Assembly (NCBI RefSeq): GCF_045037415.1
Contig: NZ_CP173438.1
DNA length: 64,000 nt
Reading direction: 5' to 3' (one strand)
DNA from: Escherichia coli
Lineage (GTDB): Bacteria; Pseudomonadota; Gammaproteobacteria; Enterobacterales; Enterobacteriaceae
The position numbers and the translations under genes were made by a program. Below the pieces are notes generated by a model. The model ran no database searches and had not been told where the DNA came from. It worked only from the letters and a program-made list of their open reading frames with translations. Of this stretch, positions 51,182 to 51,275 are shown in pieces. Numbering within the stretch: position 1 is the first letter of the stretch; every line of letters begins with the position of its first letter.

Positions 51182-51275
51182 CATCAAAAAATTTGTTGCT
51201 GTATGCCACTCTTTGACTCCCTTCACATTCGTCATCACACCACCTGCTGAATGCAAAAATTTCGTTGCTGTGCGG
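51182..51275 (+). promoter_or_regulatory. Direct repeat of a 16-18 bp AT-rich motif upstream of the accessory cluster
   Basis: CAAAAAATTTGTTGCTGTATGCC (51185-51207) and CAAAAATTTCGTTGCTGTGCGGC (51253-51275); candidate regulator binding sites. Confidence 0.3.

Follow-up and report, generated by a model that had tools for sequence, protein, structure and literature searches.

The window analysed here, a stretch of 64,000 nucleotides, is Escherichia coli chromosome, and its positions 50900–51500 are 100% identical to many complete genomes. In the RefSeq annotation ysgA, encoding a dienelactone hydrolase family protein, ends at 51109 and is followed on the same strand by a block of eight genes. 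The spacer that separates the stop codon of ysgA from the ATG of gene 1 of this operon measures 256 bp (51110–51365), the length given in the initial annotation, and is identical over its 256 bp in BL21(DE3). The genes of the operon, in order, are:

51366–52034, + strand: gene 1, cysteine hydrolase, BiuH-related (RefSeq annotation, NCBIfam)
then, in this order: DUF2877 protein, FdrA, DUF1116 protein and carbamate kinase (RefSeq annotation)
next: allophanate-hydrolase-related protein of 129 aa, AtzF C-terminal-like
next: cytosine-type NCS1 permease
58657–59562, + strand: LysR-type regulator, a paralogue of PunR and AllS, the last gene

The gene-1 enzyme scores 276 bits against the NCBIfam model for BiuH (biuret amidohydrolase), below the cut-off of 370. 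FdrA, the DUF1116 and DUF2877 proteins and the carbamate kinase are paralogous to AllFGHK of E. coli K-12, the oxamic transcarbamylase and catabolic carbamate kinase (PMC11326118, PMC9843812). Our guess is that the substrate of the operon is a ureide, for example biuret or an oxalurate-like compound. Literature searches found no publications on the regulation of this operon; a genome paper entered the operon genes as a pyrimidine- or nitrogen-related region (PMC12928451), and a metagenome paper noted biuH-allFGHK-codB co-located in nitrifiers (PMC12625717).

Of 5426 complete E. coli genomes, 1499 carry the operon and spacer, among them BL21(DE3) and ST131 strains. The operon is strongly conserved; its gene-1 enzyme is 67–91% identical among recovered loci, which extend from Enterobacterales and Burkholderiaceae to Mycobacterium and Chloroflexi MAGs. 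When 50900–51500 is used as the query, at least 80% of it is covered only in the 1499 cluster-carrying records, while in 2595 E. coli records the best match is only 80–90% identical, which suggests that strains without the operon carry a diverged 3' end of ysgA. The gene also adjoins the operon in Citrobacter and Buttiauxella, which may mean that this linkage is ancestral and that K-12 has lost the operon.

Some further features of the surroundings can be recorded here. A second accessory block lies at about 40000–49300, between rmuC and udp, and codes for an IclR regulator, a 2-dehydro-3-deoxygalactonokinase, a KDPGal aldolase and a TctABC-type tripartite tricarboxylate transporter. The 94-bp gap from the DUF2877 gene to fdrA contains a hairpin with a 7-bp stem (GTAGCCC-GTTTATG-GGGCTAC, 52919–52939). 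The 77-bp gap from the permease gene to the LysR gene (58580–58656) contains a TATACT -10-like hexamer in a context like that of the main promoter, GGGTATACTCAGG, together with a perfect 10-bp hairpin, GGCTGAATCT-GGAG-AGATTCAGCC, at 58609–58632, which is without a T-run; these could be a promoter for the regulator gene itself and a hairpin acting in RNA stability or partial termination.

The repeat pair and the control region around it

The spacer holds one direct-repeat family, 51185–51214 and 51254–51283, whose two copies are identical at 23 of 30 positions (77%) without gaps. When the 256-bp spacer was shuffled 1000 times with its dinucleotides preserved, the best direct repeat of 30 nt had a mean of 17.9 matches (sd 0.95) and none of the 1000 reached 23, confirming the repeat that the initial annotation had reported between ysgA and the first gene. 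Two of its details need correction: the distance from start to start is 69 bp rather than 68 bp, and the trailing N2-GC that it took to be common to the copies is out of register, copy 1 reading GTTGCTGT-AT-GC and copy 2 GTTGCTGT-GC-GG.

Partial dyad symmetry had also been ascribed to each copy, which understates the one and overstates the other. Copy 1 is a near-perfect palindrome of 14+3+14 bp, CATACAGCATCAAA-AAA-TTTGTTGCTGTATG, which occupies 51175–51205 (31 bp), has 13 of 14 arm positions complementary, and begins 7 bp ahead of the start first given for the repeat (51182). Scored with a matrix for the motif family described below, it reaches 25.9 bits on the + strand and 23.1 bits on the - strand. 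Copy 2 is barely dyadic, its scores of 23.9 bits (+) and 4.2 bits (-) marking it as asymmetric. The two copies are the sole strong matches to the motif within the 64-kb window, the next best reaching 12.5 bits. Classical LysR operators contain an interrupted dyad of about 15 bp, of the T-N11-A/ATC-N9-GAT type. The family consensus gcATCAAAwwwTTTGaTGc gives T-N11-A; the E. coli copies read ATC-N9-GTT and TGC-N9-GTT, and matrix position 16 is T in both, not A.

The elements of the control region are listed below, numbered relative to A51325, an invariant base and the predicted transcription start, with an uncertainty of 1–2 bp:

51129–51144: second, weaker CRP-like site (low confidence), GATGA-TTAAGC-TCACA, centre about -188.5, 8/10 core positions
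51148–51168, - strand: degenerate third motif-like element, reverse complement AGATTAAAAAAATCGTTGAAA, 5.5 bits
51175–51205: putative distal operator, copy 1, core TCAAAAAATTTG at 51184–51195, centre about -135.5
51212–51227: CRP-like site TTTGA-CTCCCT-TCACA between the putative operators, centre 51219.5, about -105.5, 9/10 core positions
51250–51270, + strand: putative proximal operator, copy 2, core GCAAAAATTTCG at 51253–51264, centre -66.5, 23.9 bits
51270–51290, - strand: weaker motif-like element GTGCGGCAAACTTTTTTCCTG, centre about -44, 12.5 bits
51312–51317, + strand: predicted -10 hexamer AATACT

The -10 hexamer, A(A/T)TACT, stands unchanged in all 14 of the aligned sequences. No good -35 hexamer was found, and a simple sigma-70 scan returned no complete promoter on the operon strand, which fits an activator-dependent promoter. 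The weaker element at 51270–51290, the third-best matrix match in the 64-kb window, overlaps the -35 region. On the far side of copy 1, the degenerate element at 51148–51168 lies about 31 bp upstream of the distal operator and is an inverted repeat of both copies; with low confidence, it may be a third regulator site in E. coli.

The CRP-like site agrees with the core TGTGA-N6-TCACA of the 22-bp CRP site at all but one of ten positions, and its TG (51214–15) and CACA (51224–27) are invariant in 14 of 14 aligned sequences. Its left half also fits the FNR-type TTGA; we favour CRP over FNR because CACA is invariant. CRP acts at class I promoters from -61.5, -71.5, -82.5, -92.5 or further upstream in phase, and at uhpT it is placed at -103.5, upstream of the UhpA sites; the centre of the present site, at about -105.5, carries the 1–2 bp uncertainty of the predicted start.

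One reading would put the function of copy 2 in the RNA, where it and the T-run beside it would serve as a terminator or attenuator for ysgA, and a simple scan does find a 5-bp stem followed by a T-run at 51264–51276. About 0.7 hits of stem plus T-run are expected by chance, however, the RNA fold of -9.2 kcal/mol (z = 0.13) is matched by 103 of 200 shuffles, and the stem is not conserved, the aligned sequence in other genera not being self-complementary; we consider this reading extremely unlikely. A search of 50900–51600 against Rfam gave Mu-gpT-DE at 19.8 bits (gathering threshold 49, E = 0.06), which we took as a chance match.

Conservation of the motif and its spacing

A search with the gene-1 enzyme, limited to one genome per species, gave 80 loci, and tblastn with the cluster proteins was used to place the regulator in them. 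Enterobacterales, Burkholderiaceae, Neisseriales (Silvimonas, Amantichitinum) and Dyella have the whole operon in synteny, closed at the 3' end by the regulator; for Vibrionaceae, Shewanella and their relatives, the regulator gene lies directly upstream on the same strand; and the enzymes of mycobacteria, several MAGs and some Caballeronia occur without such a regulator. The motif found in the upstream regions of the orthologues reads gcATCAAAwwwTTTGwTGCtg. As a matrix trained on those upstream regions would be circular, a hold-out test was made with the two E. coli copies only: the two-copy matrix was scanned over each whole locus of about 18.7 kb, the location of the top match was scored, and a top match no more than 420 bp upstream of gene 1 was counted as a success (null fraction 2.25%). 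The top match lay upstream of gene 1 as follows:

other Enterobacterales: 17 of 19 loci, binomial P ~1e-26
non-Enterobacterales with the regulator: 10 of 29 loci, P ~6e-9
loci without the regulator: 0 of 19, not significant

The motif is therefore linked to the LysR gene and co-occurs with it; among the 29 distant orthologous loci with the regulator it is weak or undetected upstream in 19. An iterated matrix, trained on the same upstream regions that it was used to scan, gave at 15 bits or more 73 matches in 33.6 kb of upstream DNA against 14 in 1.35 Mb elsewhere. A motif search upstream of orthologous clusters had been proposed in the initial annotation, with absence from orthologous loci as the result that would count against its reading; the motif is present in many genera, and that objection falls away. 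Strong chance matches do occur in coding sequence, as with the 19.5-bit match in Rahnella laticis (L024, 17894–17925), which falls within the sequence coding for the signal peptide of a small secreted protein (MKNVKIFAVAA...). We had considered strong matches about 9 kb downstream in Rahnella-type loci as a second regulon member, and set them aside as chance matches in coding sequence after reading the R. laticis locus.

The upstream regions of 14 Enterobacterales from 14 genera were aligned, with a mean column identity of 57%, and every invariant column upstream of the predicted start falls within a named element. Beyond the CRP-like site, the invariant columns include TTG (51193–51195) of copy 1 and A51255–56, T51261–62 and G51264 of copy 2. 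Downstream of copy 2 the alignment shows a block AAAyyaTTTnnCTGT (51276–51291), in which A51278, T51284–85, C51288, T51289 and T51291 are invariant. In the weaker CRP-like site (51129–51144) the TCACA half is conserved, with A, C and A invariant at 51142–44.

The positions of these elements are conserved as well. The proximal site has its centre at -65.5 or -66.5 in 17 of the 21 tabulated loci of Enterobacterales type, and a count by hand gives the same spacing from the proximal site to a TAAAAT -10 hexamer in the betaproteobacterium Silvimonas. Most of the tabulated loci have an equivalent of the distal site at -133.5 to -135.5; in the Buttiauxella group it is a helical turn farther away, at -144.5 to -147.5. 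Equivalents of the weak downstream element occur in six other genera at -42.5 to -43.5, one of them at -48.5. The CRP-like site is found at -104.5 to -106.5, moving to -116.5 in two loci of the Buttiauxella group; clear TGTGA-N6-TCAC(A/T) sites stand upstream of the Pasteurellaceae and Motilimonas orthologues, and weaker CRP-like sites with 8/10 core positions occur in nine other loci at -188.5 to -190.5 or about -200. In Serratia-type loci the third site is stronger, at 15–21 bits, and is centred at -165.5 to -166.5, about 32 bp beyond the distal site. The genes upstream of the operon differ among genera in identity and orientation, indicating that the control region travels with the operon. 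The idea that the distal sites serve a divergent promoter was dropped on the same ground, the upstream neighbours varying in both respects.

Wherever a locus has at least two sites of 13 bits or more, the distances between them are nearly always 69–71, 79–81, 100–103 or 122 bp, values that are all about 6.7 modulo 10.5 (resultant length 0.81). A Rayleigh test gives a nominal P of ~2e-8, which overstates the significance, related genomes having been treated as independent. In the Buttiauxella group the extra 10–11 bp sit between the CRP-like site and copy 2. Relative to each other, the sites thus occupy fixed faces of the helix, an arrangement that argues for joint action. These distances also bear on whether the repeat is a non-functional relic, left by a local duplication or by a small mobile or palindromic element. 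The presence of two copies of about 20–30 nt in one spacer, one of them a long palindrome, would suit such an origin. Both copies, though, hold fixed positions relative to the -10 hexamer in spacers that are only about 57% identical among genera, their spacing shifts by whole helical turns, and the 64-kb window contains no further copies, so that we regard a relic as very unlikely.

A diverged copy of the spacer, about 68% identical, is present in about 120 plasmid records. The 201-kb plasmid NZ_CP160109.1 of an E. coli poultry isolate carries a whole second operon (L002, 9995–18414), with proteins 91–97% identical and the regulator gene intact. The operators of this plasmid copy are weak, at 12.7 bits and less than 9 bits, and the recognition helix of its regulator reads PSTISYTLKK, with the substitutions A32T and I38L; it is the sole close orthologue with changes in the helix. 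That the helix changes occur with the weakest operators could reflect co-variation or decay. Weak sites beside an intact regulator gene mean either that strong sites are not indispensable or that the plasmid copy is decaying.

The regulator and its known relatives

The regulator encoded at 58657–59562 scores 288 bits against the NCBIfam model for PunR (cut-off 345) and 215 bits against that for AllS. It is 34% identical to K-12 PunR across 294 aa and, scoring below the equivalog cut-off, is not PunR. Orthologues from E. coli through to Burkholderiaceae keep its recognition helix, KVPSAISYT(I/V)KK, and those of Vibrionaceae have close variants of it; the helix of PunR, RVPSAVSYTVRQ, is close to that sequence too.

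By NCBIfam score PunR (YdhB) is the closest characterised paralogue, an activator with nearly the same helix and an AT-rich palindromic operator. Phylogenetic footprinting predicted that operator, which lies upstream of punC, and ChIP-exo, fluorescence polarisation and EMSA bore the prediction out, with a Kd of 27 nM in the presence of adenine by fluorescence polarisation; its consensus is TsttwTCAAwAwwwTTGaaGGCA and the E. coli site is GGTTTCAAAAATTTTGCAGG (PMC8376909). The full 23-bp consensus is not matched here; the sole part in common is the core TCAA-N5-TTG, which the PunR operator shares with copy 1 (TCAAAAAATTTG), the flanks being different. The present region would thus function in the manner of a PunR operator without being classed as one. 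Conversely, when 8 kb around K-12 punR-punC are scanned with the family matrix, the PunR site is the sole match of at least 10 bits, at 11.9 bits. The arrangement differs too, as PunR uses one 23-bp site in the divergent punR-punC region (PMC8376909), whereas the present region combines two strong sites with a weaker one and a CRP-like site, the regulator gene stands at the end of the operon, and the genes regulated are catabolic enzymes and not a transporter alone.

This closeness raises the question of whether another factor that recognises a similar AT-rich dyad occupies the repeats, most probably PunR by cross-talk, with the regulator of the operon acting at some other place, if it acts at all. 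PunR is present in all E. coli, has a close helix, and has a validated operator with the same core. Yet the PunR flanks are TsttwT...aaGGCA and those here CAGCA...TGCTG, the PunR operator scores only 11.9 bits with the family matrix as opposed to 24–26 bits for the repeats, and over 48 distant loci the motif follows the cluster's own regulator gene. We judge cross-talk to be improbable.

AllS, the second-closest paralogue, activates the allFGHK and allDCE operons in E. coli K-12 (PMC12535856, PMC11326118). Its operon has FdrA, DUF1116 and DUF2877 proteins (AllFGH) and a carbamate kinase, as does the present cluster, which adds the BiuH-like hydrolase, the AtzF C-terminal-like protein and the NCS1 permease. 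The AllS operon is co-activated by the global regulator ArcA, and here there is a CRP-like site instead. By eye, TCAAA-N3-TTTG is not obvious in the AllS-bound fragment (-203 to -144 from the allF ATG), nor is a copy of the motif obvious in the allD-allF and allS-allA spacers of K-12.

As its alternative to the LysR protein, the initial annotation had offered a global nitrogen regulator. In broader form, the repeats would be sites of a global or nucleoid-associated regulator, namely Nac, NtrC, IHF, Fis, CytR or FNR. The operon plausibly serves nitrogen catabolism, the sites are AT-rich, ATCAA-N-TT resembles part of the IHF consensus, and TGCAA and GTTGC in copy 2 resemble half-sites of CytR, of which the neighbouring gene udp is a target. 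Against this, pattern scans of the spacer found no match to the IHF pattern WATCAANNNNTTR with one mismatch allowed, no sigma-54 promoter (three allowed), no exact Nac site ATA-N9-TAT, no FNR site (two allowed) and no CytR octamer pair (five allowed); the ArcA pattern was scanned in the spacer as well and gave no match. An NtrC-like sequence matching at 8 of 12 positions occurs only at 51239–51255, in a variable part of the alignment. The conservation of palindromic, GC-containing flanks and the dyad symmetry also speak against a global factor, as does the finding that the motif is confined to loci that have the LysR gene, in Burkholderiales and Neisseriales too. CytR is not known outside the gamma-proteobacteria. 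A global factor at the repeats is accordingly unlikely, and the nitrogen-regulator alternative gains no support from these scans.

The two repeats are instead probably high-affinity sites for the operon's own LysR-type regulator. Computation supports this part of the initial annotation, since the motif is present in orthologues and tracks the LysR gene, copy 2 lies at about -66, and the core is that of the PunR operator. At classical LysR promoters, such as those of CbnR, BenM and OccR, a recognition site near -65 is accompanied by an activation site at about -35/-45. The present layout, with a strong site at -66.5 and a weaker one at about -44 from the predicted start, corresponds to it: the dyad at -66 has its weaker partner about 22 bp downstream, over the missing -35 hexamer, and at the family level the consensus is of the T-N11-A/ATC-N9-GAT type. 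Copy 2 is presumed to be the recognition-binding site and the element at 51270–51290 the activation-binding site. Unlike the classical arrangement, this one has an extra strong palindrome about 70 bp upstream, in helical phase, with the CRP-like site in between, and in this it resembles the arrangement of GcvA at gcvT, which is multi-site and assisted by bending, more than a minimal LysR promoter. Genes for LysR-type regulators are typically divergent from their targets; this one is not, being the last gene of the operon and on the same strand. The initial annotation described the repeats as tandem operator sites; the two are not equivalent, copy 2 being promoter-proximal with a weaker partner and copy 1 a distal palindrome.

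A proposed arrangement at the promoter

We infer that the regulator binds to both repeats and activates rather than represses the operon, that CRP is involved at the promoter, and that copies 1 and 2 cooperate. Copy 2, at about -66, would be the recognition site, and together with the element at about -44 would hold one tetramer of the regulator over a promoter that has an AATACT -10 hexamer and lacks a -35. Once an inducer is bound, the downstream dimer would take up a new position and the tetramer would bring in RNA polymerase, by the sliding-dimer mechanism usual for LysR-type proteins. A second dimer or tetramer would occupy copy 1, at about -135, and possibly the degenerate third site as well; copy 1 is held in fixed helical phase with copy 2, and CRP at about -105 would bend the DNA between the operators and add catabolite control. 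We further suggest, as a tentative and rather doubtful possibility, a phase-locked assembly of two regulator tetramers, one on the proximal and activation sites and the other on the distal and third sites, which would contact each other across the CRP bend and gate a pathway for a ureide (a biuret- or oxalurate-like compound).

The control region is newly described for this operon and is of a conventional kind, a LysR-type operator set with a CRP-family co-site. It would provide a second operator for the PunR/AllS subfamily of LysR regulators, and with the operator, a likely regulator and promoter and probable catabolite control in hand, a search for the inducer by means of a reporter becomes straightforward, which opens inducer and substrate to experiment in BL21(DE3). 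If the phase-locked assembly is true, the operator and regulator would offer a handle, through a reporter or ligand screen, on the substrate of a pathway that is widespread in E. coli B, ST131, APEC plasmids and many Proteobacteria.
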